NCBI GenBank assembly: GCA_020054495.1
Contig: JAHWGK010000008.1
Coordinates: forward strand, 2,883-66,882
Direction of reading: 5' to 3'
Source of the DNA: Thermoplasmata archaeon
GTDB taxonomy: Archaea > Thermoplasmatota > E2 > DHVEG-1
DNA: 64,000 nucleotides
The position numbers were made by a program, and so were the translations under genes. Positions 12,366 to 47,034 of this stretch are shown piece by piece. Under the pieces are notes generated by a model, which did not search any database, was not told the DNA's origin, and worked only from the letters and a program-made list of their open reading frames with translations. Every line of letters starts with the position of its first letter. Within the stretch, counting starts at the first letter, position 1.

Positions 12366-14303
12366 ATGGAGAAAATAAATAAAATTAATACTTTTTTAAA
12401 AGCGAGCTTACTAGCATTTGTTCTAATTTTGACTTCCTGCACAAATTTAACACTAGCAACTTCATCAATTTCAAATGTCGAAGAAGCAGCAAGTTTTATA
12501 GTTGAGCAACTATCAATTAATGAAAATGAAGTTCTTATTTATGTTTGGGGACCTGTTTCTGAAGGTGAAGAAGTATTCAGTACTAAGAATCATATTTTGG
12601 ACTCCCCCGATAAAGGATACGTAATTTATATTGATCTTTATCCCCAAGCTAATTTATTTCACCCTGTAAAATATATTTTCTTATCAGAAACCACAAAGGA
12701 ACTTATTGTCAAAGATGCAATTAGTCCACCTAGTAACTTTGCAGATTATCAAATGATCGAAACAGCAATGAGTGAAATATTTACATCAGCTGAAAATAGA
12801 ATAGCATCTATTCCTGAAGGTAAAATCCTCTCTTCTATGAAAAGCTCATCTGATTCAAGGTGGGCTGTACTTATGAATGGTGGATATAATTCTGGTAATA
12901 ATCATGTTCGGTATTGGAATGATTTATCAAATATCTATATTACCTTAACTTATGTGTATGGCTATCAAGATGAAAACATCATTGTTCTCTGTTCTGATGG
13001 ATTAGATCCATCTCCAGATCAATCAAATGGTCAAAATTCAAATCCAGATTTAGATGGTGATGGAGATGATGATATAATGTATTCTTGCGTTCTATCAAAT
13101 GTCGACATGGTTTTTGCAGAGCTTGCTAATATTTTATCTGACGGAAGCGAGTTGTTTATTTTCCAAACTGACCATGGTAGCAACAGCGGTGGGTGGAGTA
13201 CTCTATTTAATCTTTGGAATATGGAAGAATTAACAGATACTCATTTTGCATCTCTATTAGATGCATTACCAAATTGTGAAATTGTCTGCACCTTTGAACC
13301 ATGTTTCTCAGGAGGATTTTTAGATGATGTAGTATTACCCCCAGGTCCAATTGTTGCATCTTCTGCTTGTCGTCATGATGAATATTCGTGGGCAATGCCC
13401 CCCGATTACGTCTATGACGAATATGTATTTCATTGGACTGCTGCAGTCAATGGTGAGGATGCCTATGGAGTTCCTGTAGATGCTGATTATAATCAAGATG
13501 GAATGATTACCATGGATGAAGCTTTTATTTATGCAGAAACAAATGATGCTCAGCCTGAGAGTCCACAATATGGAGATTACCCAGAAGATATTGGCACTCT
13601 AATTTCTCTTTGGCCGGGCAGCGAACCACCGGAAACGCCAACTACACCAAATGGACCAGATGAATGGATTCCATATGTTGAAGCTACGTTTTCAAGTACC
13701 ACAACAGATCCAGAAGGAGAAAGTATCTATTATATGTTTGACTGGGGCGACGGAAACATGAGTGGATGGGTCGGACCATATGCATCAGGACAAACTGGAA
13801 AGGCATCTCATGATTGGACTGAACTTGGAGAATACGAGATAAAAGTAGTTGCAAAAGATGAAAACGGTATTGAAAGTAATTGGTCAGAACCAGCAGTTCT
13901 TTCAATCGTCGCAAATAAACCACCTGAAAAACCAACAATCACTGGACCTACCTCTGGTAAAGTTGGAGTACCCCTAGACTTCAATGTTGTTGCAACAGAT
14001 CCCGAGGGACACGATGTATACTATATGGTTTTATGGGGAGACGGGAGCTATGTGGATTATACAGGGCCATATGCATCAGGCGAAGAAGCAACATTTAGTC
14101 ATACATGGACTTCAGCTGGAGAATTTAATATTGTAGTAAAAGCACAAGATCATTTCGGAGCAAAAAGCCCACAGAACAACCTCGAATTAAGTATAACCAA
14201 GAACAAAGCAGTAACTAATCTGGTATTACTTAGATATCTAGAGTATCTGACAAATAATTATCCAAATGTGTTTCCAATTCTAAGGCAGCTATTGGGATTA
14301 TAA
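12366..14303 (+). CDS. Secreted C13 (legumain/caspase-hemoglobinase fold) peptidase with two PKD domains
   Basis: Signal-like N-terminus; TDHG and EPCFSGGF His/Cys dyad; DWGDG-type PKD repeats. Confidence 0.75.
   Translation: MEKINKINTFLKASLLAFVLILTSCTNLTLATSSISNVEEAASFIVEQLSINENEVLIYVWGPVSEGEEVFSTKNHILDSPDKGYVIYIDLYPQANLFHPVKYIFLSETTKELIVKDAISPPSNFADYQMIETAMSEIFTSAENRIASIPEGKILSSMKSSSDSRWAVLMNGGYNSGNNHVRYWNDLSNIYITLTYVYGYQDENIIVLCSDGLDPSPDQSNGQNSNPDLDGDGDDDIMYSCVLSNVDMVFAELANILSDGSELFIFQTDHGSNSGGWSTLFNLWNMEELTDTHFASLLDALPNCEIVCTFEPCFSGGFLDDVVLPPGPIVASSACRHDEYSWAMPPDYVYDEYVFHWTAAVNGEDAYGVPVDADYNQDGMITMDEAFIYAETNDAQPESPQYGDYPEDIGTLISLWPGSEPPETPTTPNGPDEWIPYVEATFSSTTTDPEGESIYYMFDWGDGNMSGWVGPYASGQTGKASHDWTELGEYEIKVVAKDENGIESNWSEPAVLSIVANKPPEKPTITGPTSGKVGVPLDFNVVATDPEGHDVYYMVLWGDGSYVDYTGPYASGEEATFSHTWTSAGEFNIVVKAQDHFGAKSPQNNLELSITKNKAVTNLVLLRYLEYLTNNYPNVFPILRQLLGL
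13881..14220 (+). repeat. Shared C-terminal PKD cassette, copy A
   Basis: Near-identical DNA to copies at about 39080, 41526, 44308 and 46657 (PEKPTITGPTSGKVGV...KSPQNNL). Confidence 0.9.
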
Positions 14304-14382
14304 ATCCACATTAATATATGCAAATTCAAAGGCTATTAATCAAAGTGGTAGTTTACTACCTAGATTGTTTCAATTATTTTAA

Positions 14383-15150: not shown

Positions 15151-15163
15151 ATTTATCTTGTCC

Positions 15164-16195
15164 TTACATGTTCACAAGAGAACCAAAACCAAGATCTTCT
15201 ATATCGAGTTGATCGAGCCATTTTTCTTTACAATTACAATCAAGCTCCTTAAACACATTTATATTTTGCGAAAGAGAAAACTCATATACTGCATCAAGAA
15301 ATCTACGATCACATAATTTACAGTTATGTGCACCTCTGATACTTCCACCACCTGCTATATCACATTTAATTCTAACACTTCCAGCAGTTTTTTTACTTTC
15401 TTTAAGTATTTTAACAACACTAAAAAGCCATGCTGGCCGGTACTGTTTTCGATTCCATAAATAATTCACTAACGTATTTCGCTGTACGTTAGTTGGATTA
15501 AATGAAACAGTATCGGTAATTGTTTTAATTTTATCAACGGTATTTATTGCATCTTCGATTGATTCTTTTTCTGTTAAAAATGGAGGTTTAATCAAAACGT
15601 ACGTTTTCAACTTAACATCTTGTTTTTTTAGTATTTTTGTAGCTTTTTTATATTCTTCAAATGTAAATCCCTTGTTTAAACAGTGTTCACGCACAAAATT
15701 ACTAGCAGATTCAAGGCCAATTCCAATTTCAAAGGTTTTAGATTTGAAATAATCTTTGATTTCTGAGAGTTTTTCATCTGTAATAAATTCTGGCCTTGAT
15801 TCTACAGATACTTTATCAGCTGTTTCTACAAGTTTACCTAGGATTTTTTTTCTAACTATAGGTTTTATTTCTTTATCATCTAAAAAACTGCCAGATGTAA
15901 AAATTTTAATAAAATTTTGCCCAGAATAATTATTCATTGCTGTATCAAACTGTGCTAACAGGTCACTATCAGATACATTCTCCCACATACTGTCGTTGAA
16001 ATATCCACACATACTGCATCCAGAGTTTAGAGCCCAAGAGCACCCCTTCGTTCTAAAAATAATTACAAAAGCATCAATTATTTTGTCATCTAAAACATCT
16101 TTTTCAGACCAACAACTCACTGGTTTTTTAGCATCTTTAGATTTTGGCGTGAAATCTTTCTTTAGATTTCTACAGAATTGTGCTATTTCGTTCAT
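15164..16195 (-). CDS. Archaeosine biosynthesis radical SAM protein (RaSEA-like)
   Basis: RTKGCSW...GCSMCGY (CX6CX2C), KIFTSGSFLD, ESRPEF, RGAHNC. Confidence 0.85.
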   Translation of the reverse strand: MNEIAQFCRNLKKDFTPKSKDAKKPVSCWSEKDVLDDKIIDAFVIIFRTKGCSWALNSGCSMCGYFNDSMWENVSDSDLLAQFDTAMNNYSGQNFIKIFTSGSFLDDKEIKPIVRKKILGKLVETADKVSVESRPEFITDEKLSEIKDYFKSKTFEIGIGLESASNFVREHCLNKGFTFEEYKKATKILKKQDVKLKTYVLIKPPFLTEKESIEDAINTVDKIKTITDTVSFNPTNVQRNTLVNYLWNRKQYRPAWLFSVVKILKESKKTAGSVRIKCDIAGGGSIRGAHNCKLCDRRFLDAVYEFSLSQNINVFKELDCNCKEKWLDQLDIEDLGFGSLVNM

Positions 16196-17361
16196 TTCTG
16201 GTTTCTTCTATCTTTCTTCCGGTATTTAAAGATTAGAACAACGACAACAAGAGAGATAAGAAATACTAATATCTCAAAACCTGGTGCCATAACATAACGT
16301 GGACCCGGAAGTTTTATTTCTGGCGAAGGCTCTGTTCCAACGTTTGGATCATCAACTACACTAAAATAATATGGGACGGTGTCAATTATTGTATTGTTAA
16401 ACTCCACAAATTTACCATCAACTATGTGATTTTCGAAATAATAGATTATTTCAGCTGATATGTTGACTGTAGCGTTCTCGTTTTCTAACCAACCATTTTT
16501 CTTTGGAGTAGATAGATAATAATCGTCTTGTTCAGATTTTGTTGCATTAATTTCCATACCATCATTAACAGAATAGTAAACTCTGCTAACATCGGTGTTT
16601 ATACCAAATTTAAGTGTAGTAGCATGTCCTATTCTGGGACCTGGCGAAACATCTGCATCTAGAGGTTCAGGACAAGTTATTGTGCTATTACTATATGCAA
16701 AAGAACCTTCTCTTACTGTAGCATGACCACTAGAGTCCTCAATTGTTATTTTAAAATTGTATGTGTCTGTATTCTCTGTTAAATTGTCTGGGCTCTGATA
16801 AGTATAGCTGAAAATATTATTATTAAAATCAAAATTGGGAGATTCTGTTGTTCCATCTGGATAAGTCAAATCAAATTTGATATTTTGTTTTTCAATCCCT
16901 ACGTTATCTGTTATCTTTCCCACAATTAATACTGTACCGCCTAACTCCTGCATACCTGGCAAAACCGCAACTTCTACACGTGGTGCTTCATCATCATAAA
17001 ACGGCGGGTTGACAAGCACTATAACCACTATTAGCCAAGAGAAGAAATAAACAGCATAAGAGCCGAACCAATTTTTCCGTCCAAAATCAGTTAGATCAAG
17101 ATTTAATCGTATGAAAATAGATTTCAAAAATGCTGCGTTAACAACTACAACAAGTAAAACCAGCTCCCATCGAAGATAATGTTTACCCATAAGAGCCCAA
17201 AAACCAAAACATACAAGGCCCATAAAACAGCCGAATAAGAATGAAATAAACGTGGATTTGATGTTTCGTCTTTCTCTTTTAAAAAATGATTCTTCATCAA
17301 ATTTTGGTAACTTAAAGGGTTTATCTTCCTCCTCGTCTTTTTCTTTCCTTCGTTTTGCCAT
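16192..17361 (-). CDS. Membrane protein: N-terminal TM helices, extracellular beta-rich region, PGF-CTERM-like C-terminus
   Basis: Three hydrophobic segments near the N-terminus; ends PGFEILVFLISLVVVVLIFKYRKKDRR. Confidence 0.7.
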   Translation of the reverse strand: MAKRRKEKDEEEDKPFKLPKFDEESFFKRERRNIKSTFISFLFGCFMGLVCFGFWALMGKHYLRWELVLLVVVVNAAFLKSIFIRLNLDLTDFGRKNWFGSYAVYFFSWLIVVIVLVNPPFYDDEAPRVEVAVLPGMQELGGTVLIVGKITDNVGIEKQNIKFDLTYPDGTTESPNFDFNNNIFSYTYQSPDNLTENTDTYNFKITIEDSSGHATVREGSFAYSNSTITCPEPLDADVSPGPRIGHATTLKFGINTDVSRVYYSVNDGMEINATKSEQDDYYLSTPKKNGWLENENATVNISAEIIYYFENHIVDGKFVEFNNTIIDTVPYYFSVVDDPNVGTEPSPEIKLPGPRYVMAPGFEILVFLISLVVVVLIFKYRKKDRRNQK

Positions 17362-17402
17362 TAGTGGGGGGATAGAATTCTTATTTAAAGGCTTTTCTCA
17401 TA

Positions 17403-25292: not shown

Positions 25293-25354
25293 AGAAAACA
25301 TTTAAGAGGAATAATTCTATGACGGAAGCTTTACTATCAACGATTGGGGGTAAA

Positions 25355-27316
25355 ATGACATTAGATAAAGTGTTATCAACGGAAAAAGCAGAATTAGAAG
25401 AGGCTGTAAAAATTGCCAATAAAGGAACACATTGTGGTATGTGTAAGGTTGATTTTTTAGAATCAGGTTTATGCCCAGCTGGTAAAAAACATGGATTTGC
25501 TGCATATTGGCCTGAAGGAAGAATGGAAATTGTAAAAGCTCTTTATTCTGATAAAATAAAACCTACAAAGGAATTATTGGAAATTGCCAATTCCTGTACA
25601 ATTTGTGGTATTTGCGACAAACAATGCAACTTTATTACACATCTTAGACCAGAAAAAGTTAGCAAGGCTTTGAAGGAATATGTCAATAAATTAGACGATA
25701 AAGATATTGTAACTATTCCTGAAAATCAAACATTAAAGGACATTCGATCAATAGTTGGAGAGAGATGGGCATCTAATGACCCAGCAGTTATTGTATCTTA
25801 TACAAAGACAATCATTACTGAGGATGCTGGAGTGAATTTTTACGTTGTTATGCCTGAAACAACAGAAGAAGTAGCTGAAGTTGTTAAATATGCAGATAAA
25901 AACAATATTCCATATCTTCCACGTGGAAATGGAACATTACTATCGATGTTTATAGAAACACTTCTTGCAAAAGCTGTTGGTCTAGAGAAAGGAATAATAT
26001 TTGATTTTAGAAGACTGAGAAAACTTGAAATCGATATAGATAATAAAACAGCAACAATTGGTGTTGGAATAACAGCATTCGAGCTTCAAAAAGAAGCCTA
26101 TAAACATGAAATGCGCGCTCTTGTTGCTGAAGCAGAGGCTCATTTGTGTGTAAATATTGCATCAGTTGGAATTATTTCTACTTGGGGTAATACTTACGGA
26201 TGGGGGTCTGACAATTTTATTGATGCAACTCTAGTTAATTCAAAAGGTAATATTGTCCGTCATAGCGATGAGGAAGTATCCAATCCTTATTCAACTAACA
26301 ATAAATTCACAAATCTTACATTAACTCCATCAAAAATCATTACTGAGGCAACTGTAAAACTCCATCCTATATTTGAAGATGAAGAAGCACTTTTAATTCC
26401 ATTTGAAAAACTTGATGATACACTTGACCTTGCGATGACACTTGCAAAAAGAAATATTGGACTTTCTCTTGCTGTAATATCAAGTAAATATCTATCTGAG
26501 TTCATCTGTCCAACAAATGAAATCGCAGAGGATTTTGACTTTATTGCACAAAATTATCTAAAAATGAACTATTTATTAGATGTTATATGTGATAAGTACG
26601 ATAAGAAGACAGTGCAAGATCTAGCTGATGTTTTTATTGATGAAAATATGATGAAATCCTTGATTCTTGGATCACCTAGGCTTGCTTCACTTAAAGAAAG
26701 TGAATTTCTAAAAATTCTATCTGAGGAAAAGGATCCCCTCAAAGCAATATTTACAGGACCGATGAGAAAACATTTGGAAAAAGCATTAGATCCATCGCCA
26801 GAACAAATATCAAAGGTTTTTGATGAAGATTTACAGGATTTTTTCAAAAAAGTATATTCAAAACCAGAAATGACAGATGTTGTTTGGCTTCATTCATTTA
26901 GGATTCTACCTAGCAGACTAATGAGACAGAGAATGTTCATGTTGAGAGGTGGATATATTGTTGCAGATAAAGAGAAAATATTGAACCTAAACAAAATGCT
27001 CAAAGAAACAGGTGATAAATACAAATTATCAAACGCCCTTGGATTTATTAGTTTCATTGAGAATGGTAAATTTGCATTTGTAGAATATGATTACTACTTT
27101 GATCATTTGGATCCTGACTCTCATAATCGTTTGAACCAGGCAATTGTTGAAACATTACAATTGGAACTCAAAATTAAAGGTTTGTTACCAATTGAATATG
27201 TTTTTCATAAGGGTTTACATCGAAAGGAGCATTTATTTTATCCAATGCCCGAGGGTCTATCAGACGATGAATTAAAAATATTAGGAGAAATGGTTCAATC
27301 TGTCGTTGGAGGATAA
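25355..27316 (+). CDS. Fe-S + FAD-binding (VAO/PCMH-fold) oxidoreductase, paralog 1
   Basis: N-terminal HCGMC...CP and CTICGICDKQC; VVMPETTEEVAEVVK...PYLPRGNGT; GGGGG RBS before ATG 25355. Confidence 0.8.
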   Translation: MTLDKVLSTEKAELEEAVKIANKGTHCGMCKVDFLESGLCPAGKKHGFAAYWPEGRMEIVKALYSDKIKPTKELLEIANSCTICGICDKQCNFITHLRPEKVSKALKEYVNKLDDKDIVTIPENQTLKDIRSIVGERWASNDPAVIVSYTKTIITEDAGVNFYVVMPETTEEVAEVVKYADKNNIPYLPRGNGTLLSMFIETLLAKAVGLEKGIIFDFRRLRKLEIDIDNKTATIGVGITAFELQKEAYKHEMRALVAEAEAHLCVNIASVGIISTWGNTYGWGSDNFIDATLVNSKGNIVRHSDEEVSNPYSTNNKFTNLTLTPSKIITEATVKLHPIFEDEEALLIPFEKLDDTLDLAMTLAKRNIGLSLAVISSKYLSEFICPTNEIAEDFDFIAQNYLKMNYLLDVICDKYDKKTVQDLADVFIDENMMKSLILGSPRLASLKESEFLKILSEEKDPLKAIFTGPMRKHLEKALDPSPEQISKVFDEDLQDFFKKVYSKPEMTDVVWLHSFRILPSRLMRQRMFMLRGGYIVADKEKILNLNKMLKETGDKYKLSNALGFISFIENGKFAFVEYDYYFDHLDPDSHNRLNQAIVETLQLELKIKGLLPIEYVFHKGLHRKEHLFYPMPEGLSDDELKILGEMVQSVVGG

Positions 27317-27729: not shown

Positions 27730-27870
27730 ACATATTTAATTTTAAATTATGAAAAAATTGATGCGATATTATCCTTTATTTATTTTTTTATATATTTTCC
27801 AATAAAAACCTTTAATAATATGAGTTGTTATCATTTCTATTGTATATATTATTATTTTGGGGGAAAAAAC

Positions 27871-30254: not shown

Positions 30255-30295
30255 TTAAAAGTCAATTTGAAAGAATTAATTGAAGAGGGTTGAAT

Positions 30296-36772: not shown

Positions 36773-36868
36773 GGGTTTTATAATAAAAGGATAAAAATTT
36801 TTTTTATAAAATTTTTTAATATATTAAAAAGTTTTAAATCTTACAAAAGTATTATAACTTATAAAGTG

Positions 36869-36884
36869 ATTAACACTTGTTAAT
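36869..36884. promoter_or_regulatory. Palindrome ATTAACA-CT-TGTTAAT upstream of first C25 gene
   Basis: Same core TTAACA-N2-TGTTAA as at 41946-41959; core starts 18 bp after a TTATAA box. Confidence 0.55.
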
Positions 36885-36901
36885 TAGTGGAGGTAGTGTA
36901 T

Positions 36902-39451
36902 ATGAGAAAGACAATGTTGGGAATTTTAGTGAGTATGTTAATGATTGGAAGTGTCTTAGCTAGTGCTACAGTAATTGAAAACAAAGAGTATCTAAAAAAT
37001 GAAAAAACAAGTTTTTTTGAAATTGAAGATGGTGAAATAAGTGTTACAACGCCTATAGGAAGCTACGAAATTAAACAAACTGATCAAGGCGACTATGTTT
37101 CTGTTGAAGATTTTGGTCGGCTTTTAATTCCAGGAAAACCTGAACTTCCAACAAAGATTTATGCAATTGCTATTCCACCCGCCGCTGAATTTGATGATGT
37201 AACTTATGAAATTGGTGAAGGAATCGAACTTCCTGGAGAATATAACGTAATACCAACTCCTCTCCCAAAGGTAATTGGGGTTGAAGACCCAGAAGTTCGT
37301 GAAAAAGAAGAGCAAATTTATAATGAAAATTATGAAAATACATATAACAGCGATGATCAGTATCCTACTTCAGTAGTAGAATTTGAGCGAACTGCAGGTT
37401 TTAGAAAATATAATCTAGTTGATGTGAAAGTAACTCCTTTTTCGTATAAACCATTATCTGGCAAACTTACTTTTTATCCAGATATAACCATCCATGTAAG
37501 TTATACATTTCCCGAGGGTACAGACCCCACTGAAATCATGTTTGATGAAGTAGAAAGCTTTGAACAAAGAGCAAGTGAGTTCATACTAAATCATGAAACA
37601 GCGAAAGGTTGGTATACGCCAGGAAAGAGCGGAAGAGAAACCTATGATTATATAATTATTACCCTTGATTCTCTGACCTCATCTGTAGACCCATTAGTTG
37701 ATTGGGAAGAAGTAAAAGGACGGAGTGTAAAAGTTGTCACAACTTCTTGGATCAATTCAAATTATGATGGATATGATTTAGCAGAAAAGATAAGGAATTT
37801 TTTAATAGACAAATATCCTTCAAGTGAATGGGGAATTGAGTATGTATGTTTAATTGGTGATTATGATGATGTATCAATTCGTCGTACGGCACAGAATACA
37901 GGTTACGGAAGGCCTGAAACTGATTTCTATCATGCCGAGCTTACATTACCTGACAGTCAATCATGGGATGCGGATGGAGATCATCAATATGGTGAAAACT
38001 CTGATCCCGTTGATTTCTATGCAGAAGTTTATGTCGGTAGAATTCCATGGAGCACCCCGTCAATCGTAGAAAGTATTTGCGAAAAGACAGCTGCCTATGA
38101 AGGGGAGATTGATCCTTCATTTAAGAAAAATATACTTCTTTTAGGTGCGTATTTCTGGCCTGATACAGATAACGCGGTATTAATGGAATACAAAACAGAT
38201 GACAGTATACATCCATGGATGTCTGATTGGACAATGACAAAAATGTATGAACAAGGTCAATCTTCATATCCAATGGATTACAACCTGGACTACAATAACG
38301 TTAAATCTGTCTGGTCGTCAGGAACTTTTGCTTTTGTAAACTGGGCTGGACATGGTTCACCAACTGCATGTTATGAATATTATCCCTCACAAGCTTTTGT
38401 TGATACAAACACCTGTAATTATCTGAATGATGATTACCCGGCAATCGTTTTTGCAGATGCGTGTAGTAACTCTGATACCGATGAAGACAACATTGGCCAG
38501 ATGATGCTGAAACAAGGCGCAGTAGGCTTTCTTGGAGCAACTAAAGTAGCATATGGAATGCCTGCATGGAGCAATCCATTGAGTGGTTCCAGCCAATCTA
38601 TGGATTATTTCTTTACAACAGGTTGTACAGAGGGGATTTTAACTCAAGGTGAATCCCATCAATTAGCTTTACAAGAAATGTATGAAAATGATTTATGGTA
38701 CTATCAGAAATATGAGCATTTTCAATGGGGCGCACTATGGGGTAATCCAGATCTAACAATGGGTGAAGTTGTAACAACTGAACCGCCAAGCATTCCAATT
38801 ATAGATGGTCCAACTGCGGGTGTACCTCATGACCAGTTGACATTTACAGTCGAATCAATTGATCCTGATGGAGATATGATTTATTATAAGTGGGATTTGG
38901 GTAATGGCGAAGTGACTTTCTGGTATGGACCTTATAATTCTGGAGAAACTATAGAGTTTACTTATGAATATTTGGAGGTTGGAATATATGAGGTTAAGGC
39001 ATATGCAAAAGATATAAACCAAAGAACTAGTGAAGACTGGTCAGATCCGATTACGGTAACAATTGGCGATAATCGTGCTCCAGAAAAACCAACAATCACT
39101 GGACCAACCTCTGGAAAAGTTGGAGTACCCCTAGATTTCACATTTGTATCAACTGATCCCGATGGGCACGATATATATTATATGGTTCTATGGGGAGACG
39201 GCAATATGGAAGACTATACAGGACCATATGCATCAGGTGAAGAAGCAACATTTAGCCATGTATGGAGCTCAGTAGGTGAATTTAATATTATTGTAAAAGC
39301 AAAAGATCAATACGAAGCGAAAAGCCCACAGAACAATCTCAAATTAAGGATACAACTGAGCAGAGCCATAACTAACCCAGTATTATTTCGGATTCTTGAA
39401 AATCTAATGAGTCATTTTCCACTGTTAAATCATCTACTTTTAAACATATAG
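36902..39451 (+). CDS. Secreted C25 (gingipain-like) cysteine peptidase with propeptide and PKD domains
   Basis: Signal peptide; PGKPELP propeptide; YVCLIGD, VGRIP, AGHGS, DACS, LWGNP; two PKD repeats. Confidence 0.85.
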   Translation: MRKTMLGILVSMLMIGSVLASATVIENKEYLKNEKTSFFEIEDGEISVTTPIGSYEIKQTDQGDYVSVEDFGRLLIPGKPELPTKIYAIAIPPAAEFDDVTYEIGEGIELPGEYNVIPTPLPKVIGVEDPEVREKEEQIYNENYENTYNSDDQYPTSVVEFERTAGFRKYNLVDVKVTPFSYKPLSGKLTFYPDITIHVSYTFPEGTDPTEIMFDEVESFEQRASEFILNHETAKGWYTPGKSGRETYDYIIITLDSLTSSVDPLVDWEEVKGRSVKVVTTSWINSNYDGYDLAEKIRNFLIDKYPSSEWGIEYVCLIGDYDDVSIRRTAQNTGYGRPETDFYHAELTLPDSQSWDADGDHQYGENSDPVDFYAEVYVGRIPWSTPSIVESICEKTAAYEGEIDPSFKKNILLLGAYFWPDTDNAVLMEYKTDDSIHPWMSDWTMTKMYEQGQSSYPMDYNLDYNNVKSVWSSGTFAFVNWAGHGSPTACYEYYPSQAFVDTNTCNYLNDDYPAIVFADACSNSDTDEDNIGQMMLKQGAVGFLGATKVAYGMPAWSNPLSGSSQSMDYFFTTGCTEGILTQGESHQLALQEMYENDLWYYQKYEHFQWGALWGNPDLTMGEVVTTEPPSIPIIDGPTAGVPHDQLTFTVESIDPDGDMIYYKWDLGNGEVTFWYGPYNSGETIEFTYEYLEVGIYEVKAYAKDINQRTSEDWSDPITVTIGDNRAPEKPTITGPTSGKVGVPLDFTFVSTDPDGHDIYYMVLWGDGNMEDYTGPYASGEEATFSHVWSSVGEFNIIVKAKDQYEAKSPQNNLKLRIQLSRAITNPVLFRILENLMSHFPLLNHLLLNI
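39080..39385 (+). repeat. Shared C-terminal PKD cassette, copy B
   Basis: 39182-39301 reads identical to 41628-41747. Confidence 0.9.
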
Positions 39452-39461
39452 AGGCATTAAA

Positions 39462-41900
39462 ATGATTAAAAATACAAAAAAAATAAAAATCATTGGAGCT
39501 GCATTTTTACTTGTTTTGGCATCTTTACCAACTGTTTTTGGAATGGCAACTAATACAACTGCACTAGATGGTGTTAGTGGACAAGTTGGATTTGAGGTTA
39601 AAAATATTGATGAAACAACAATTGAAATAAATGTGAATCCTCAAGATTTTGTTTTTAAAAGTGTAAAAACCGAAGATGGCATATTTGCAACTATTTCATT
39701 ACCAAGTTATGGATTTACTTATGTTAAGGGCGAAGCAAAATTACCAATCATTAGAAGGATGATTGAAATACCCCAAGAATCAAATCCAGAAATACTTGTT
39801 ACGTCAATTTCTTGGGATGATACTACACTTGATGAATTGAACCTTCCAAATAGGATCATTCCTGCTCAACAATCAGTTGAAAAGATACCAGAACCAATAG
39901 ATGATTTTGTAGTAGATGAAAAATATTATTCAACTGATACATTTATGCCGGAAACAATTGCAAAAATTGTTGAAACCGGAGAAATACGTTCCAGACGTTT
40001 TGCACTGGTTGAAGTTTCACCTATACAATACAAACCTGCGACTGGTGAATTAAAAATCATAAATTCTTGTGAAATAGCAATAAATCTACCAAATAGTGAT
40101 ATGACTAAAACATATGAAAAAATAAATCGTTATTCTTCTCCAAGTTTTGAAAAAATGTTTGAGGTCGCCTTTCAAAATTATGGTTTTTATGAAAGCGGCA
40201 TTGAAAATAGAGACCAAGAGGGCATCTTAATTATTGTTTATGATAGCTTTTATGAGGAAATTCAACCGCTTGTAAATTTGAAAACAAGCAAGGGATATGA
40301 TGTTACTGTTACAAAAACATCACAAATACCTGGTGGTCCAACAAAAGAAAATATATATGACTATATTGAGGATGCTTACAATACTTGGACGATTCCTCCA
40401 ACATATGTTTTACTTGTTGGAGACACACCACAGATACCAACATATTCTGGAACAACAGGACCATCTGCTGTTGATCTTTATTATGTTACAGTTGATGGAT
40501 CTGATTATTTTCCAGATATCTACATAGGAAGATTCCCAGGATCTCAAGAGTCTCAAATTGAAGCTATGGTCGAAAAATCTGTTTATTATGAAACGGGTAA
40601 TTTTCCATTGAATGAATGGATTAAAAAAGCAGCATTTTTAGCTTCGACTGATAATTATCAAATTTCTGAAGGAACACATAACTATGTAATTGATAATTTT
40701 CTTAATCCAAATGGTTACACTTGTGATAAACTTTATACTGTTTCATATGGTGCGACAACTCAAGATGTTCATGATTCAATAAATGACGGGCGAAGCCTTG
40801 TTGCCTTCTCAGGTCATGGCAGTCCAAGCGGATGGGGAGATGGTCCGTCCTTCTACCAATCAGATGTACAGGCTCTAATGAATGAAGATATGTATCCATT
40901 TGTTTGTAGCCATTCTTGTTCAACAAATACATTTGACGATTCAGAATGTTTTGGAGAAACCTGGCTTCGTGAGGCTGACAAAGGAGGAATTGGCTTTTGG
41001 GGAGCATCTGCCAGTACCTATTGGGATGAGGACGATATTCTTGAGAAAGCAATGTTTCAAGCCTGGTGGGAAGACGACCTCGAATGGCTTGGCGGCATGA
41101 CTGACATGGGGCTAATTTATCTATATGAAAACTACAGCGGCGGCGGTTCCACAAAATACTACTTCGAAGCTTACAATCTTAATGGTGATCCATCCTTAAG
41201 ATTATGGAGTGATGACCCAAATAGTCCACCAGAGATTCCTGAGAAACCAGATGGACCATCAGAAGGAGTTCAATATGGGGAATTAACATTTTCTACAAGC
41301 ACAACAGACCCTGAAGGAGAACAAATTAGATACGGATGGGACTTTGATGAAGATGATGTAGTGGATAAGTGGACAAATTTCTATAACTCAGGAGAAACAG
41401 TTTATGCATCCCACATCTGGGAAGTACCTGGAGTATATGATATTAAGGTAATGGCTGAAGATTTAAACAATCGTCAAAGTGGATGGTCAGAACCATTAAC
41501 TGTAACAATTGGTGAAAATAGTGCTCCAGAAAAACCAACAATAACTGGTCCAACTTCTGGAAAAGTTGGAGTACCCCTAGATTTCAATGTTGTAACAACA
41601 GATCCCGAAGGACACGATATATATTACATGGTTCTATGGGGAGACGGCAATATGGAAGACTATACAGGACCATATGCATCAGGTGAAGAAGCAACATTTA
41701 GCCATGTATGGAGCTCAGTAGGTGAATTTAATATTATTGTAAAAGCACAAGATCATTTCGGAGCAAAAAGCCCACAGAACAACCTCGAATTAAGTATAAC
41801 CAAGAACAAAGCAGTAACTAACCCAGTATTTCTTCAGCTTCTCGAGAAATTAATGGATCGTTTTCCATTTATCGAGCGGCTTCTACTAAATCTTTGTTAA
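39462..41900 (+). CDS. Secreted C25 (gingipain-like) cysteine peptidase with PKD domains
   Basis: YVLLVGD, IGRFP, SGHGS, HSCS, LNGDP; two PKD repeats. Confidence 0.87.
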   Translation: MIKNTKKIKIIGAAFLLVLASLPTVFGMATNTTALDGVSGQVGFEVKNIDETTIEINVNPQDFVFKSVKTEDGIFATISLPSYGFTYVKGEAKLPIIRRMIEIPQESNPEILVTSISWDDTTLDELNLPNRIIPAQQSVEKIPEPIDDFVVDEKYYSTDTFMPETIAKIVETGEIRSRRFALVEVSPIQYKPATGELKIINSCEIAINLPNSDMTKTYEKINRYSSPSFEKMFEVAFQNYGFYESGIENRDQEGILIIVYDSFYEEIQPLVNLKTSKGYDVTVTKTSQIPGGPTKENIYDYIEDAYNTWTIPPTYVLLVGDTPQIPTYSGTTGPSAVDLYYVTVDGSDYFPDIYIGRFPGSQESQIEAMVEKSVYYETGNFPLNEWIKKAAFLASTDNYQISEGTHNYVIDNFLNPNGYTCDKLYTVSYGATTQDVHDSINDGRSLVAFSGHGSPSGWGDGPSFYQSDVQALMNEDMYPFVCSHSCSTNTFDDSECFGETWLREADKGGIGFWGASASTYWDEDDILEKAMFQAWWEDDLEWLGGMTDMGLIYLYENYSGGGSTKYYFEAYNLNGDPSLRLWSDDPNSPPEIPEKPDGPSEGVQYGELTFSTSTTDPEGEQIRYGWDFDEDDVVDKWTNFYNSGETVYASHIWEVPGVYDIKVMAEDLNNRQSGWSEPLTVTIGENSAPEKPTITGPTSGKVGVPLDFNVVTTDPEGHDIYYMVLWGDGNMEDYTGPYASGEEATFSHVWSSVGEFNIIVKAQDHFGAKSPQNNLELSITKNKAVTNPVFLQLLEKLMDRFPFIERLLLNLC
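41526..41830 (+). repeat. Shared C-terminal PKD cassette, copy C
   Basis: Segments match copies D, B and A in turn. Confidence 0.9.
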
Positions 41901-41945
41901 TTTTCAATAAATTTTTTTTCCCAAAGATTTAAAACCTTCAATTGG

Positions 41946-41959
41946 TTAACAGATGTTAA
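41946..41959. promoter_or_regulatory. Palindrome TTAACA-GA-TGTTAA upstream of third C25 gene
   Basis: Starts 18 bp after a TTTAAAA box at 41928; same motif and spacing as 36870. Confidence 0.55.
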
Positions 41960-41982
41960 TCATATATATGTGGAGGTAAAAT

Positions 41983-44724
41983 ATGAGAGACTATACTTTT
42001 AAGGAGATAAAAAGAAGTAGAAGCGGTATTGGTGTAATTTTTTGTGTTTTTTTACTCATTGCATCCATCGCTACAGCAATTGATATACCAAAAGAGTTAG
42101 ATGAAAAAGATGGCAGCAAAACGGATAGCTTGAGTTATACGTTTCTTTTTGAAGAGCCTAGTTTTCAAATAACAGAAGCAAATGATCAAGAATTTTCATT
42201 AATAGAAATGGGCGGATGTATTGCAATAGGAAAAAATGCTGGTCATCCCATGATGCCAGTTAAACCTGTTACTTTACTTCTTCCACCGAAAAAAACAGTT
42301 TCAAATGTAGAAATTAATGGAATTCCTGCAAATGTCGATCTAGCAGGTATTGATTTGGTGGAAAAACCAGTTTTTCCATATCAAAATCCAGTACCATTTG
42401 GACATTCTCCTGGCGATTTTGAATATGATAATGGCCTTTATTCTACTGATGCTTTTTATCCAAGTGTTTTACAAGACGAGTATCATATCGGCTATTCCCG
42501 AGGGTATGCAATATTTGATATATCGCTTAATCCAATAAAATTTAATCCTGTAGATGGAAACTTATTATATTACTCTGAGATGACAATTAATATCGAACTT
42601 GAAGAAACAGAAGCAAATCCGCTTTTTAGAAATAATCCAGAAGACAAAGCATGGGTTGAAAAACTTGTTTATAATCCAGATGCAACAAAATATTATACAC
42701 CGGATTTAGCAGCTTTTAGTTATGATGGTGGCCTTTGTGATCCAGGTGATGATTATGATTATGTCATTATAACTACAACCTATAATAGTCTTGATTACTG
42801 GAGTACAGGTGGCTCTACACCATATAATTGGGAGAGTCTTATGGATAAACATGAATCTGAAGATGGCATGAGTTGTACACTTGTTACAGTTCAGGATATT
42901 GAGGCCTGTTCTGATTATGGAAATTCAAATCCATTGTTTGACGATCAAGAGGCACATATTCGAGAATTTGCCAAAGATGCATATCAAGACTGGGGAACTT
43001 CATATATACTTATTGGCGGTGATGATGAGTGGATAAACGCGCGTCATATGGATACAAATTACGAAGGCAACATTGATTCAGATATTTACTGGAGCAATCT
43101 TGATAGTACGTTTAATGAGGATGGAGATTATGATTGGGGTGAAGAAGGCGACAATGGTTTTGATCTTTATGCCGAGATCTTTATTGGTCGTGTTACTTGC
43201 GATACGCCACAAGATGTATCAAATTGGTTGACTAAGAGCTTTTACTATGCTGATAGTATGGATGACGTCTATTTGGATAATGCAGCATTTTATGGTGGAA
43301 ATACTGGTTGGAATTGTCAGGGTGATGATTTCATGGACTACAGTGCCATTAAGGGAACTAATGATTGGCTTGGCCCGAATCCTGGTGCTGATGGACCGTT
43401 TCCTACATGGGCCGGTTTCCAATTTGGCTTTGAAACTTGGAATGCTGAAAACCCTGATGATCAATATGATATTTCAGTCCAGTGGACTGCAGAACCGCCA
43501 AATCCTGGTTGGCAAGGCGGATCAGAATCTGCAGCTATAAACGGACTGAAAAATGACATTAACAACGATCAAGTGACAATTTTGAGCGGCATGGCCCATG
43601 CAAATTCTCAGATGTCGCTAGATGTTTCTTCAAGCAACTGGGAATCTGATTACCATAACACGAAACCTTTCTTCATCCATGACTATGGATGCCATTGTGG
43701 TGACATGGATGCATCAGATGATGGCGTCCTTCACTCAATGTTATTCCACAGTGATACAGAACTTGCTTTTGCAGCTGTATACAATACATGTTACGGATGG
43801 GGTAATTTTGATACAACAAATTCAAGCAGTGCGTTCCAGACAAAAGAGTTCTGGTCATACTTCCTTGATATGAAAAACAAATCTGGAGATTTTAATAGTT
43901 GGCAACTTGGAAAAGCACATGCCTTTTCCAAAGATAGAATGGCTCCAACAATTAACTGGGATTATTCAACTGGCACATGGCGGGCTATTATCCAAGGCTG
44001 TCTATTATTTGGAGATCCTGCACAACAACTCAAAACACCACACCAAAGCGAACCTCCAGCAAACCCAGATGCACCAGATGGGCCAGATGACTGGATTCCT
44101 AACGTAGAATGCACGTTTTCTGCAGTCACAACTGATCCTGAAGGGGAACAAATTTTTTATATGTTTGACTGGGGCGACGGAACCTTTAGTAATTGGCTAG
44201 GACCCTATTCTTCCGGGCAAACTATAGATGAATCTCATATCTGGACAGAATTGGGAAACTATGAAATAAGTGTAAAAGCAAGAGACATATGGGGCGTATC
44301 AAGCGATTGGTCAGAACCAGCAGTTCTTTCAATTATTCCGAATAAACCACCTGAAAAACCAACAATCACTGGACCTACCTCTGGAAAAGTTGGAGTACCC
44401 CTAGACTTCAATGTTGTAACAACAGATCCCGAAGGACACGATATATATTACATGGTTCTGTGGGGAGATGGAAGCTATGTGGATTATACAGGCCCATATG
44501 CATCAGGTGAAGAGGCAACATTTAGCCATACATGGACTTCAGCTGGAGAATTTAATATTGTAGTAAAAGCACAAGATCATTTCGGAGCAAAAAGCCCACA
44601 GAACAACCTCGAATTAAGTATAACCAAGAATAAGGCTGTTACTAATTCGGTATTACTTCAATTTCTTGAAAAACTAATGGATCTTTTCCCACTGTTAGAA
44701 CAAATACTGCAAAATATAGTCTGA
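41983..44724 (+). CDS. Secreted C25 (gingipain-like) cysteine peptidase with PKD domains
   Basis: YILIGGD, IGRV, MAHAN, YGCH, LFGDP; two PKD repeats. Confidence 0.82.
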   Translation: MRDYTFKEIKRSRSGIGVIFCVFLLIASIATAIDIPKELDEKDGSKTDSLSYTFLFEEPSFQITEANDQEFSLIEMGGCIAIGKNAGHPMMPVKPVTLLLPPKKTVSNVEINGIPANVDLAGIDLVEKPVFPYQNPVPFGHSPGDFEYDNGLYSTDAFYPSVLQDEYHIGYSRGYAIFDISLNPIKFNPVDGNLLYYSEMTINIELEETEANPLFRNNPEDKAWVEKLVYNPDATKYYTPDLAAFSYDGGLCDPGDDYDYVIITTTYNSLDYWSTGGSTPYNWESLMDKHESEDGMSCTLVTVQDIEACSDYGNSNPLFDDQEAHIREFAKDAYQDWGTSYILIGGDDEWINARHMDTNYEGNIDSDIYWSNLDSTFNEDGDYDWGEEGDNGFDLYAEIFIGRVTCDTPQDVSNWLTKSFYYADSMDDVYLDNAAFYGGNTGWNCQGDDFMDYSAIKGTNDWLGPNPGADGPFPTWAGFQFGFETWNAENPDDQYDISVQWTAEPPNPGWQGGSESAAINGLKNDINNDQVTILSGMAHANSQMSLDVSSSNWESDYHNTKPFFIHDYGCHCGDMDASDDGVLHSMLFHSDTELAFAAVYNTCYGWGNFDTTNSSSAFQTKEFWSYFLDMKNKSGDFNSWQLGKAHAFSKDRMAPTINWDYSTGTWRAIIQGCLLFGDPAQQLKTPHQSEPPANPDAPDGPDDWIPNVECTFSAVTTDPEGEQIFYMFDWGDGTFSNWLGPYSSGQTIDESHIWTELGNYEISVKARDIWGVSSDWSEPAVLSIIPNKPPEKPTITGPTSGKVGVPLDFNVVTTDPEGHDIYYMVLWGDGSYVDYTGPYASGEEATFSHTWTSAGEFNIVVKAQDHFGAKSPQNNLELSITKNKAVTNSVLLQFLEKLMDLFPLLEQILQNIV
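44308..44707 (+). repeat. Shared C-terminal PKD cassette, copy D
   Basis: 5' part matches copy A; tail 44641-44706 nearly identical to 46951-47016. Confidence 0.9.
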
Positions 44725-44874
44725 TAAACCACCAATCTCTATCTAAATCACTAAAACCCTTTTTTTCTTTATATATTAAAGTTAGAAAGGAGATCAGTAT
44801 TGGTCATAACTATTGGAATTTTATGTAAGATTTAAATATACTATTAACGATGATATTATTGGTGGAGGTAAAAA

Positions 44875-47034
44875 ATGAAAATAAAAAAACAAATTTTTTT
44901 AACAGCAATTTTCGTAATTATTGGGCTGGTAATATCTAATGCAACTGGTAGTATTATGTTGATGCCTTTGACTGATAACACTCTTAAAGATATCGCGTCT
45001 TTATCTGGTGATATATTTGAAGGGAACGATGAAGAAGTTGTTTCAGTATTAGTTTATTTAAAAGATCAGGTTGACCTTGATGCCATCAATGGGCAGATGG
45101 ATGAGCAGCGAGCAACACTACAAGATCGCCATGAGACAACAGTTGTTACACTTCAAAATACTGCATATGCAACGCAACCTCAACTAGTTGAATATCTAAA
45201 TGAACTTCAGAGTCAAAAATTTGTAAAAGAATTTAAGTCTTTTTGGATTAGAAATATTATTCGAGTTGATACCTATCAAAGTGTTGTTGATGAAATCGCT
45301 AAACGTGATGATGTTTTAAGGGTGTATCCAAACTATAATATTGAATTAATTGAACCAACAGGCGAAAGATTTGATGGTAAATCTGGTAATAAAGATGACA
45401 TTGAAATTGGTGTTATAGCTGTTAGAGCACCAGAGGTCTGGGATATGGGCATCACAGGTGAAGGTGTCCTTGTTGCAACAATTGATACTGGAGTAGATGG
45501 TAACCACCCTGCACTTGCTGATAGATGGGCAGGTGTAGCAGATCCCAGATATGAAGGACATCCAGAGTGGGCATGGTTTGACCCATATGCAGGTCAGAAC
45601 GATTTTCCTTATGATAGCAATGGTCATGGCACTCATACAATGGGTACTGTATGTGGTGGTACACCAGGGGATCAAATTGGTGTTGCACCAGGTGCCCTGT
45701 GGATATCAGCAGGAGCTATCGACAGAGGCGGGGGCATTTCTCAAACTGTTTCAGATGCAATAGAATCATTCGAATGGATGATTGATCCTGATGGTGATCC
45801 ATCAACAAATTGGGATGTCCCAGCAGTTTGTTCAAATTCATGGAGGTTAACTACGGGGCATGGATATCCGCCCTGCGATGAAACATTTTGGACTTTTCTT
45901 GATGCTTGTGAATCTGCAGGAACTGTTATAATCTTCTCAGCTGGCAACGAGGGTTATTCGGGTTTAGGTAGACCTTCTGACCGAGCAACTGATGATTATC
46001 GAACCTTTGCAGTTGCAGCAGTTGATGCAAATAATCCAAGCTGGCCAATTGCAGGTTTTTCATCTAGAGGTCCAACATATTGTACTCCAACTGGCGGTGC
46101 AGCAATTAAACCAGATATCGCAGCACCCGGTGTTGATGTACGTTCATCAGTGCCAGGTGGCGGTTATGGATACAAAGATGGTACTTCGATGGCTTCACCA
46201 CATATCAATGGTGTTGTCGCACTAATGCGTGAAGTTAATCCAAATATAAGTGTTGAGGAAATAAAAGAAATCATATATCAAGCAGCATATGACTTAGGTA
46301 GTCCAGGTGAAGATAACGATTATGGCTGGGGAATGGTTGATGCCTATGAAGCAGTTTTGCTTACCAATCAACATCCAGATACGCCTGTTATTGATGGCCC
46401 AACAAATGGAAACGCAGATGCCTCTTATGATTTTACATTCAAATCAGTAGACCCAGAAGGTGATGATGTTTATTACTGGATTGACTGGGGAGATGGTACC
46501 TCCAGTGAATGGATAGGACCTTACAATACAGGTGAAGAGATAATTGTGAACCACACATGGAATAATCCAGATACATATGAAATCAGAGCGAAAGCCAAGG
46601 ATGATAATGGTGAGAGTGACTGGTCAGAACCGCATATTATTTCAATTGTTAATCAACCACCAGAAAAACCAACAATCACTGGACCAACCTCTGGTAAAGT
46701 TGGAGTATCCCTAGATTTCACTGTTGTTACAACAGACCCCGAGGGCCACGATGTATACTACCGGTTTGTATGGGGAGACGGCAGCTATATAGACTATACA
46801 GGTCCATATGCATCAGGTGAAGAAGCAACATTTAGCCATACATGGACTTCAGCTGGAGAATTTAATATTGTAGTAAAAGCACAAGATCATTTAGGAGCAA
46901 AAAGCCCCCAGAACAACCTCGAATTAAGTATAACCAAGAACAAAGCATTAACTAATTCGGTACTACTTCAATTTCTTGAAAAACTAATGGATCTTTTCCC
47001 ACTGTTAGAACAAATATTACTAAACTTGCGTTGA
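44875..47034 (+). CDS. Secreted S8 subtilisin-like serine peptidase with PKD domains
   Basis: IDTG, HGTHTMG and GTSMASPH triad; FSAGN; two PKD repeats. Confidence 0.93.
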   Translation: MKIKKQIFLTAIFVIIGLVISNATGSIMLMPLTDNTLKDIASLSGDIFEGNDEEVVSVLVYLKDQVDLDAINGQMDEQRATLQDRHETTVVTLQNTAYATQPQLVEYLNELQSQKFVKEFKSFWIRNIIRVDTYQSVVDEIAKRDDVLRVYPNYNIELIEPTGERFDGKSGNKDDIEIGVIAVRAPEVWDMGITGEGVLVATIDTGVDGNHPALADRWAGVADPRYEGHPEWAWFDPYAGQNDFPYDSNGHGTHTMGTVCGGTPGDQIGVAPGALWISAGAIDRGGGISQTVSDAIESFEWMIDPDGDPSTNWDVPAVCSNSWRLTTGHGYPPCDETFWTFLDACESAGTVIIFSAGNEGYSGLGRPSDRATDDYRTFAVAAVDANNPSWPIAGFSSRGPTYCTPTGGAAIKPDIAAPGVDVRSSVPGGGYGYKDGTSMASPHINGVVALMREVNPNISVEEIKEIIYQAAYDLGSPGEDNDYGWGMVDAYEAVLLTNQHPDTPVIDGPTNGNADASYDFTFKSVDPEGDDVYYWIDWGDGTSSEWIGPYNTGEEIIVNHTWNNPDTYEIRAKAKDDNGESDWSEPHIISIVNQPPEKPTITGPTSGKVGVSLDFTVVTTDPEGHDVYYRFVWGDGSYIDYTGPYASGEEATFSHTWTSAGEFNIVVKAQDHLGAKSPQNNLELSITKNKALTNSVLLQFLEKLMDLFPLLEQILLNLR
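46657..47016 (+). repeat. Shared C-terminal PKD cassette, copy E
   Basis: Near-identical to copies A and D. Confidence 0.9.

Follow-up and report, generated by a model that had tools for sequence, protein, structure and literature searches.

A stretch of 64,000 nucleotides (nt) of archaeal DNA, called here the window (bases 2883-66882 of the source contig C237), encodes five exported peptidases of three families that share the same C-terminal ending, in which a last PKD unit (PKD2) is followed by a basic hinge and a short helical tail. About 87 exported proteins of the genome close with this PKD-hinge-tail ending, a lineage-wide C-terminal tag, and six peptidases, the five of the window and an M28 peptidase encoded on another contig, carry one peptidase-restricted subtype of its PKD unit. 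Gene conversion between paralogues, or recent transfer of segments, is shown in part to maintain PKD2 DNA at 81-94% identity, and surface retention is the most likely role of the tail as judged from the sequences and from structure models. Taken together, this account of a lineage-wide end tag, a peptidase-restricted PKD2 subtype, its homogenisation by gene conversion and a putative function in surface retention is considered probable, if far from secure. The host of these genes for exported peptidases is an uncultured marine-sediment Thermoplasmatota archaeon of the MBG-D type (Marine Benthic Group D), whose genome (G000; 2.72 Mb in 248 contigs, 33% G+C) is 89.9% complete. The sequencing runs that contain window DNA are labelled as marine-sediment and cold-seep metagenomes, and the database relatives of the peptidases, from metagenome-assembled genomes, bear the names Thermoplasmatales, Thermoplasmata or Thermoplasmatota archaeon.

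A common ending on peptidases and on other exported proteins

The five peptidase genes and their 3' cassettes lie on the forward strand at the following window positions:

12366..14303, + strand: C13 (legumain-type) peptidase gene, 645 aa; Peptidase_C13 PF01650, 34.3 bits (cut-off 22.8)
13923..14300, + strand: cassette of the C13 gene; PKD2 13923-14180, hinge and helical tail 14181-14300
36887..39451, + strand: C25 (gingipain-type) peptidase gene C25a, 854 aa; Peptidase_C25, 137.9 bits
39080..39448, + strand: cassette of C25a; PKD2 39080-39337, hinge and tail 39338-39448
39462..41900, + strand: C25 peptidase gene C25b, 812 aa; Peptidase_C25, 236.8 bits
41526..41897, + strand: cassette of C25b, a mosaic copy
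41983..44724, + strand: divergent C25 peptidase gene C25c, 913 aa; Peptidase_C25, 73.4 bits
44350..44721, + strand: cassette of C25c, the reference copy; PKD2 44350-44607, hinge and tail 44608-44721
44875..47034, + strand: S8 subtilase gene, 719 aa; Peptidase_S8, 154.2 bits
46660..47031, + strand: cassette of the S8 gene; PKD2 46660-46917, hinge and tail 46918-47031

All five proteins score above the curated Pfam cut-offs of their families, and the C25 propeptide is present in C25a, C25b and C25c. The conserved His and Cys columns of the C25 family are kept in the alignment of C25a and C25b, the two proteins for which they were read, the catalytic core of C25c being aligned only in part; the Asp, His and Ser motifs of the S8 protein and the His and Cys motifs of the C13 protein were seen by eye in the translations. 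A basic-then-hydrophobic segment opens each of the five, and export is assigned throughout from such hydrophobic N-terminal segments, judged by eye and by a hydropathy score and not by a signal-peptide predictor. In the C13 protein the translation and Pfam give the order N-terminal hydrophobic signal segment, C13 domain, PKD1, PKD2, hinge and tail. Two PKD stretches (PF00801 / PF18911; 44-62 bits vs a cut-off of 23.5) are found in every one of the five proteins, and all of them show the same succession, PKD1 and then PKD2, with a helical tail of 25-30 residues behind a basic hinge, [RK]-x-[RK]. The genes C25a, C25b, C25c and S8 form a tandem, co-oriented array with gaps of 10, 82 and 150 nt, and the C13 gene lies on the same strand about 22.6 kb upstream of it.

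At the DNA level, the endings constitute one repeat family of five direct 300-nt copies, starting at 13914, 39071, 41517, 44341 and 46651, which are 81-94% identical to the reference copy (44341-44640). A first-pass annotation of this DNA had proposed that the C13, the three C25 and the S8 peptidases carry a common C-terminal PKD cassette, and both Pfam and the repeat family bear this out, well above anything that chance would give. It was equally right that one copy stands about 25 kb apart, as 25,157 nt separate the start of the C13 copy from that of the following one downstream, and that the flanks are far more diverged, PKD1 being 53-76% identical in DNA and 36-68% in protein and the catalytic heads 22-29% in protein. 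Its description of the cassettes as near-identical including synonymous sites stands in so far as PKD2 diverges clearly less than its flanks, but PKD2 pairs are 81-94% identical in DNA, with proportions of synonymous differences (pS) of 0.15-0.41 and synonymous divergences (dS) of 0.17-0.60, figures that cover six copies, M28 included, and that are not near zero. The proteins do not end at KSPQNNL as it had stated, since hinge and tail, 37-40 residues counted after SPQN, come behind. The BLASTN search of the cassette against the 2.72-Mb genome that it had proposed recovered the five copies of the window plus a sixth (C184:13802-14152, 77.8% over 351 nt), which belongs to the M28 peptidase on contig C184; beyond these six copies no match longer than 116 nt was found in the genome.

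The cassette has an abrupt start and a gradual end. Mean pairwise identity, taken in 30-nt windows, is 0.33-0.65 upstream. The first codon of PEKPTITGP, at the PKD1/PKD2 linker, brings a jump from 0.58 to 0.91, and values between 0.76 and 0.96 are kept over some 270-300 nt; by +330 the identity is down to 0.60, and beyond the stop codons it is 0.45, so that the fade falls inside the tail. The PKD2 units of C13 and C25c reach 94% DNA identity. The tails are 39-74% identical in protein among the copies, with the exception of the C25c-S8 pair (89% in protein, 87% in DNA), and their last ~25 residues are the least homogenised part; the hinge reads TKNK in five of the six copies and LSR in C25a, and has about 28-30 residues behind it. 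PKD1 is also common to the C13, C25c and M28 genes at 71-76% DNA identity (window 13620-13858 vs 44047-44285, and C184), and in these genes the homologous block is therefore about 225 codons long, longer than in the other copies.

The peptidase-restricted subtype was delimited in a careful maximum-likelihood tree of 27 modules, in which 19 modules, all of them on peptidases, form one clade (support 100/98). Database matches that reach 50% identity and 90% coverage number 15, and every one of them is likewise a C13, C25, S8 or M28 peptidase.

The ending reaches well beyond this subtype. When a hidden Markov model (HMM) of the tail alone was iterated over all open reading frames (ORFs) of the genome, successive rounds yielded 39, 87, 89 and 90 domain matches, and in 87 ORFs the match ends no more than 25 residues from the C-terminus. 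These carriers are spread over 42 regions, often in arrays of three to five genes. A hydrophobic N-terminal segment is present in 80/87 carriers vs 321/924 background ORFs, and the seven carriers without one comprise three that are cut by contig ends, two with mis-called starts and two short fragments. Pfam heads were determined for 60 of the 87 carriers. Peptidases account for 17 of the 60 (six C25, four C1, three M28 and one each of S8, M14, C39-like and C15-like); the other heads include eight PQQ-type propellers, three FG-GAP, two NosD beta-helix and two BNR/sortilin proteins, as well as LamG, H-lectin, metallophosphoesterase, nitroreductase, DUF362, InlB-repeat and others, while nine carriers have PKD only and seven have no Pfam match at all. 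Since most carriers have such unrelated heads, the module is a general ending of exported proteins in this organism and not a device of a protease set. Accordingly, the idea of an interchangeable docking or sorting module, put forward in the first-pass annotation, survives as an interchangeable C-terminal module that lies outside the catalytic domains of exported proteins, but its supposed specificity for the proteases does not, given the 87 ORFs. A PKD-domain protein of 445 aa without the tail is encoded near the protease array, at window 49938-51275.

The C25 family illustrates how loosely head, PKD and tail are associated. The genome holds 35 C25 ORFs (37 Pfam-model matches), 13 of which have an HMM-positive tail. 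Inspection by eye added four with a diverged tail placed straight after the catalytic domain, with no PKD between them, and two with a tail-like end below the threshold, and about 13 stop at the C25 domain. The tail, rather than PKD, thus looks like the autonomous element, as it also occurs without PKD; and it is not needed for every exported C25 peptidase, as about 13 go without it. Examples from this genome-wide survey of tail and PKD status are:

C33:43592-45505, C180:17654-19549, C190:121-2019 and C33:45558-47444: C25 ORFs

Comparison with related genomes, also suggested at the first pass, showed that, within the same family, 20 of 24 genomes have the tail; the tail profile matches as many as 110 times in one genome and 106 times in G000. 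Two other families of the order have it in 1/8 and 2/2 genomes, at weak E-values, and none of six genomes in five further families of the class matched the profile. In a sample of 150 genomes of the class (E<=1e-6), the tail was found in 46/67 genomes of family f1, in 6/25 of f4, as single matches, and in 1/1 of f11, and in none of the genomes sampled from f6 (0/32), f10 (0/13), f2 (0/4) and f8 (0/4). Among the families sampled, the tag is therefore frequent in a single archaeal family; in the rest it is rare or was not found. Among 1.84 billion representatives of 50%-identity protein clusters, 2218 match the tail at E<=1e-3 and 434 at E<=1e-10, and of the best 150 of these worldwide matches 149 end within 10 residues of the C-terminus.

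Structure and possible roles of the tail

Two AlphaFold2 models of the PKD2-tail module agree in showing a PKD unit (predicted local distance difference test, pLDDT, 97-98) followed by a helix, a kink at a conserved F-P and a second helix, the helical part being modelled at pLDDT 64-75; in the C25c model the helices span residues 99-116 and 118-127 (pLDDT 64-70). The tail HMM has the consensus L.V.MPRNKA..N..FL.FL...PN.FPIL..LL..L. A transmembrane-like segment was not found: in all 85 tails the Kyte-Doolittle mean over 19 residues stays below 1.6. The median net charge of the tails is +3, and 77/85 have at least +2; their median hydrophobic moment is 0.48 vs 0.37 in other C-termini. The two models, the moment and the charge together describe a terminal amphipathic helix without a transmembrane segment. 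The basic hinge is conserved as well, with [RK]-x-[RK] in 79/87 tails of this genome and the longer form P-[RK]-x-[RK] in 58/87 tails vs 23/1471 background C-termini. None of 55 tails matched any NCBIfam model below E 0.1, and no description of the tail was found in Pfam or NCBIfam or in the literature on Thermoprofundales/MBG-D peptidases, PKD domains or Thermoplasmatota sorting signals (open-access full texts and bioRxiv, without supplements). A search of the ESM Atlas returned only PKD clusters of Thermoplasmatota and Methanobacteriota.

Two features of the tail sequences are recorded here. There are two tail classes, a long one with H-P-N-x-F-P and a short one without that insert. In some tails (G001 C168 859-3405; P0011; G000 C171:66007-67239) the F-P motif is doubled, as if the ends of the two classes had been fused or duplicated.

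On these grounds, the PKD units would act as the stalk of the exported enzyme, and the cationic amphipathic tail would probably hold it at the cell surface, whether lying in the membrane plane or docked on an envelope component. Such a surface hold would involve neither a transmembrane anchor nor an archaeosortase.

The search for a co-occurring scaffold or processing enzyme, which had been envisaged in the first-pass annotation, found none among the candidates considered: neither archaeosortase nor C13 nor C25 co-varies with the tail, and no cohesin was found. The archaeosortase model PF09721 matches in 10/24 family genomes and, when G000 is counted, in 9/21 tail-positive and 2/4 tail-negative genomes. 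Archaeosortase was rejected as the enzyme of the tail, as it was not found in G003 and G009, two tail-rich genomes that are each a single contig, and is present in G007 and G016, which together with G002 and G014 are among the tail-less genomes of the family. G000 itself has one archaeosortase-like gene (C110:23337-23771; PF09721, 38.6 bits) and no match to the PGF_CTERM model TIGR04126, for which the control was positive in two genomes. C13 was rejected as a universal processing enzyme, as it was not found in the tail-rich genomes G001, G003 and G005. C25 is encoded in 24/24 family genomes, with up to 38 matches each, and is equally present in tail-less ones (19 matches in G002, 33 in G016 and 10 in G014), so that it shows no co-variation with the tail. 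Cohesin (PF00963) had no match in G000, at the 89.9% completeness of this genome, and its control was positive in 2/14 genomes.

An alternative to surface retention is that the PKD2-tail subtype gathers the C13, C25, S8 and M28 peptidases on a scaffold or on each other, and that selection for this docking keeps the copies alike. The restriction of the 19-module clade and of the 15 closest database matches to peptidases would be expected on that basis, as would the tail signature of the subtype, with its acidic residues and lower net charge, and the low ratio of nonsynonymous to synonymous divergence (dN/dS) of PKD2, for instance 0.010/0.26 for C13 vs C25c. There is also a precedent in Porphyromonas gingivalis, whose gingipains and HagA share adhesin cassettes and form complexes, as passages of PMC5266723 relate. 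On the other hand, the genome yielded no cohesin, and Pfam gave no dockerin or Por_Secre_tail (PF18962) match in the five proteins at E<=0.01; the last ~25 residues, the likeliest part to act as a tag, are the least conserved among the copies; the same-genus genome G001 has only one gene of the subtype (best match 58%, others <=46%); and the restriction to peptidases may be a sampling effect, peptidases being a large share of the carriers and the matches having been picked by similarity to peptidase modules. Docking as the main function is thus doubtful. An extended version, in which the less cationic, partly acidic subtype would be a docking code for one surface multi-protease machine of C13, C25, S8 and M28 peptidases, with each other, the cationic tails or a scaffold as partners and with gene conversion retained to match the surfaces, and in which the generic tail would be a new class of sortase-independent archaeal surface-retention signal, is distinctly doubtful.

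Neither does the tail belong to the systems to which it had been likened at the start, when an archaeal analogue of dockerin or of the gingipain C-terminal domain (CTD) was suspected: Por_Secre_tail and dockerin gave no match, cohesin was not found, the PorU model NF033707 reaches only 34.1 and 83.5 bits vs a cut-off of 420, and the terminal element is helical. The whole-genome search with Por_Secre_tail gave no match, its control being likewise without a match in any genome.

A further possibility, drawn by analogy with PorU, is that the tail is a cleaved sorting signal, in which case a dedicated peptidase, possibly of the C25 family, would cut at the basic hinge and transfer the protein to a lipid or to an envelope polymer; such a system would act in the manner of a sortase while using a novel signal architecture. 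Gingipains cut after Arg or Lys. The prevalence of the basic motif at the hinge, the ubiquity of C25 in the family genomes and the partial match of C25b to the PorU model (the 83.5 bits given above) would fit such a mechanism. It is nevertheless improbable, as that match is far under the cut-off, C25 is just as present in tail-less genomes, C13 was not found in three tail-rich ones, archaeosortase shows no co-variation, and none of the 85 tails offers a transmembrane segment that could hold the signal for processing. Surface retention by the tail itself is kept as its most likely role.

Homogenisation of the last PKD unit

The similarity of the PKD2 copies is best followed by comparing paralogues with orthologues. 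Between paralogues, dS is 0.17-0.60 for PKD2 vs 0.72 to saturated for PKD1, and saturated for the heads. Close-strain orthologues of C25c, S8, C25a, C25b and M28 from other assemblies (P0006, P0007, P0012, P0016 and P0010, respectively) are 90-96% identical overall, with 93.5% over 913 aa for P0006 vs C25c and 96% over 719 aa for P0007 vs S8. In the module tree these five group with the six modules of G000 in one clade of 11 rows (support 97/93), and its sister clade (97/94) mixes S8 and C25 modules of other lineages, including the module of the C25a orthologue from G001. This orthologue, from the same genus, is 66% identical to C25a in its head, 35% in PKD1 and 65% in PKD2, and the PKD2 of C25a is 78-91% identical to that of unrelated peptidases in its own genome. 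The modules therefore group by lineage and not by gene, which is a signature of concerted evolution. Within the 11-row clade, the tree pairs the modules of C25c, S8, C25a and M28 with their close-strain orthologues (C25c-P0006, S8-P0007, C25a-P0012, M28-P0010), and the C25b module does not pair with P0016.

Comparison of the segments within each orthologue pair points in the same direction. PKD2 is less conserved than the head in the S8 pair (75/86 identical residues, 0.87, vs 487/500, 0.97; p 2e-4), in the C25b pair (71/86, 0.83, vs 545/593, 0.92; p 0.009) and in the C25a pair (77/86, 0.90, vs 343/356, 0.96; p 0.02). PKD2 is thus the most diverged segment in three of five orthologue pairs, though it is the most conserved one between paralogues. 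Moreover, the C25b cassette appears as a mosaic in a breakpoint scan, being C25a-like to the left of cassette positions 213-223 and like C13, C25c and S8 to the right; the p-values of this breakpoint (1e-5 to 2e-4) are uncorrected for about 1800 implicit tests. The C25b sequence is identical to C25a at cassette positions 103-222 (120 nt) and to C13 at positions 214-296.

Gene conversion accounts better for the near-identity of the cassettes than does a need for the docking surfaces to be identical. The converted tract would extend from the PKD1/PKD2 linker usually to the first third of the tail, and the homogenised PKD2 would mainly be a by-product of recombination between neighbouring homologous 3' ends. 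Elsewhere in these genes, the PKD1 of the G001 C25a orthologue (G001 C168 859-3405) resembles, by eye, the PKD1 of the C13 and C25c genes rather than that of C25a (window 38795-39079), and PKD1 units may therefore also be exchanged between paralogues.

Were there no gene conversion, an old shared domain would have to be kept similar by strong purifying selection and codon bias alone, and this is very unlikely: the low dN/dS of PKD2 and the fact that most modules still pair with their close-strain orthologue speak for it, but the synonymous divergence of PKD2 is 2 to >5 times below that of PKD1 next to it in these genes, the DNA shows an abrupt boundary, the modules group by lineage and stand separate from that of the G001 orthologue, and PKD2 combines the highest divergence between orthologues in three of five pairs with the highest conservation between paralogues.

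Several observations weigh against the overall account. With respect to the tail, its helices are modelled only at pLDDT 64-75, and the hydrophobic moment is only moderately above a background whose 95th percentile is 0.59. The tails of the peptidase subtype have net charges of 0, +1, +1, +2, +3 and +4 vs the family median of +3, which makes a purely electrostatic membrane anchor a poor fit for these enzymes. As regards gene conversion, PKD2 is not more diverged than the head in two of five orthologue pairs (C25c and M28). A comparable peptidase cluster in the single-contig genome G009 (252000-271900) has repeats that are only 72-76% identical, so that homogenisation is not general. Furthermore, in the sample studied the subtype is found only on peptidases, other lineages included, which a pure by-product view does not predict. 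Finally, the public k=31 contigs of four runs (X1, X2, X4 and X5), examined over 36800-47200 with three joints with sides of 22-23 letters disregarded, break in every cassette, and none among those listed bridges one; copies have exact runs of 83-120 nt in common. The fine mosaic, especially that of C25b, could therefore be an assembly chimera, and how variant blocks are linked inside a cassette depends on the original short-read assembly.

The breaks and exact runs just mentioned, together with the same assembly trouble reported for rgpA, kgp and hagA in part of PMC5266723, could suggest that the similarity of the copies itself is an artefact, produced when short reads of a metagenome-assembled genome were collapsed or wrongly threaded across a repeat; this is highly unlikely, as the five copies differ at 6-19% of sites and each is surrounded, on a single contig, by flanks unique to it, unitigs of 101-169 nt that are specific to a copy agree exactly with the window at a depth only slightly above that of the flanks (38-45 vs 30-36), and independent assemblies contain orthologues of the same architecture, which leaves only the fine phasing, such as the C25b mosaic, at risk. 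These independent orthologues, 90-96% identical, comprise full-length proteins of 913, 719 and 811 aa and a protein of 574 aa whose match to C25a begins only at residue 270 of the latter. The assignment of cassettes to genes is thus independently supported by full-length orthologues in other assemblies, and the fine mosaic is without such support.

Known systems, genomic setting and significance

The closest structural relative of the module, PDB 4XED, is the PKD domain that an M14-like peptidase carries in the MBG-D-type single-cell genome of Thermoplasmatales archaeon SCGC AB-540-F20; it is the same PKD unit, from the same kind of archaeon and likewise on an exported peptidase. Its match with a profile of 54 modules has an E-value of 4.9e-39 and covers profile positions 2-97, and the module model superposes on 4XED with a TM-score of 0.97 on the target, an rmsd of 0.9 Å and 44% identity, the next-best structures being the PKD domains of ColG and ColH. 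The difference is that the crystallised chain stops at the hinge (…MPK), so that the tail is without a solved structure. No paper citing 4XED was found among open-access full texts and bioRxiv.

As regards the behaviour of the DNA, the nearest parallel comes from P. gingivalis, where, according to portions of Dashper et al. 2017 (PMC5266723), rgpA, kgp and hagA have identical or near-identical C-terminal repeat DNA, modules are rearranged between genes, gene conversion has been invoked and short-read assemblers break. Both cases show alike non-catalytic C-terminal DNA with mosaic exchange, here 81-94% identical over 300 nt in five genes of three families. In that diderm bacterium, however, the exchanged modules are cleaved-adhesin and DUF2436 domains followed by a type IX CTD, whereas Pfam finds only PKD in the region shared here, and the archaeal combination of PKD and helical tail spans four peptidase families and belongs to a tag of many non-proteases. 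The type IX system also offers a C-terminal non-catalytic module that is placed on many exported proteins, the gingipain family among them, with an Ig-like beta-sandwich near the C-terminus; it differs from the ending described here, in which the terminal element is helical, PF18962 has no match and the PorU model stays at 34-84 bits vs 420. Archaea are monoderm and have no outer membrane.

Tripartite signals such as PGF-CTERM/archaeosortase, PEP-CTERM/exosortase and LPXTG/sortase are comparable in being short C-terminal signatures borne by dozens of exported proteins per genome in one lineage. The tails differ from them in lacking a transmembrane helix (0/85), an NCBIfam match (0/55) and co-variation with archaeosortase, and G000 has no PGF_CTERM match. 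E. coli PBP5 and PBP6 are exported enzymes with a C-terminal amphipathic helix as membrane anchor. By analogy, the cationic and amphipathic tails may be compared to this short terminal helix on an exported enzyme without a membrane-spanning segment, but there is no sequence relation, and the tails have two helices, a conserved F-P kink and a basic hinge and occur on about 87 proteins per genome. The cohesin-dockerin pair of the cellulosome shares with the present case the notion that different enzymes are brought together by an exchangeable module at their C-terminus; it differs in that the five proteins have no dockerin match, G000 has no cohesin match and the architecture contains no calcium-binding repeat.

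The array is surrounded by housekeeping genes (ribosomal proteins S15 and L15e, cysteinyl-tRNA synthetase and fructose-1,6-bisphosphatase), and the locus is therefore not a mobile island. No RNA run is listed among the 21 runs for window 36887-46886. Elsewhere in the window, two adjacent FAD_binding_4 paralogues (25319-27316 and 27820-29841), one of which also has a 4Fe-4S dicluster domain, share a 300-nt repeat that is 65% identical; a LuxE-like acyl-protein synthetase and a LuxC-like acyl-CoA reductase adjoin, in an archaeon, at 30290-31657 and 32069-33622; and a 389-aa ORF with an EMC6-arch domain (33.7 bits) lies at 16195-17361, beside a radical SAM gene.

MBG-D-type Thermoplasmatota are among the most frequent archaea of marine sediments. 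According to passages of PMC6461988, MBG-D-type Thermoplasmatota are thought to degrade detrital protein with exported C25, C13, C1, M28 and S8 peptidases, and these peptidases are known and highly transcribed in sediments. New here are the restriction of a subtype to peptidases, evidence that the copies evolve in concert, and the negative outcome of testing archaeosortase, C13 and C25 for co-occurrence with the tail. The recombination of protease 3' ends matters for assembly, for binning and for the reading of protease repertoires, and mirrors the gingipain genes of Porphyromonas. The tag is rated as one of the C-terminal surface-retention or sorting kind with an unusual architecture that has no transmembrane segment; it is carried by about 87 exported proteins per genome and has 2218 cluster representatives worldwide, and it matches no described sorting signal. 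How wall-less or poorly known cells retain their enzymes nearby is a question to which this tag would provide a concrete and testable candidate answer.

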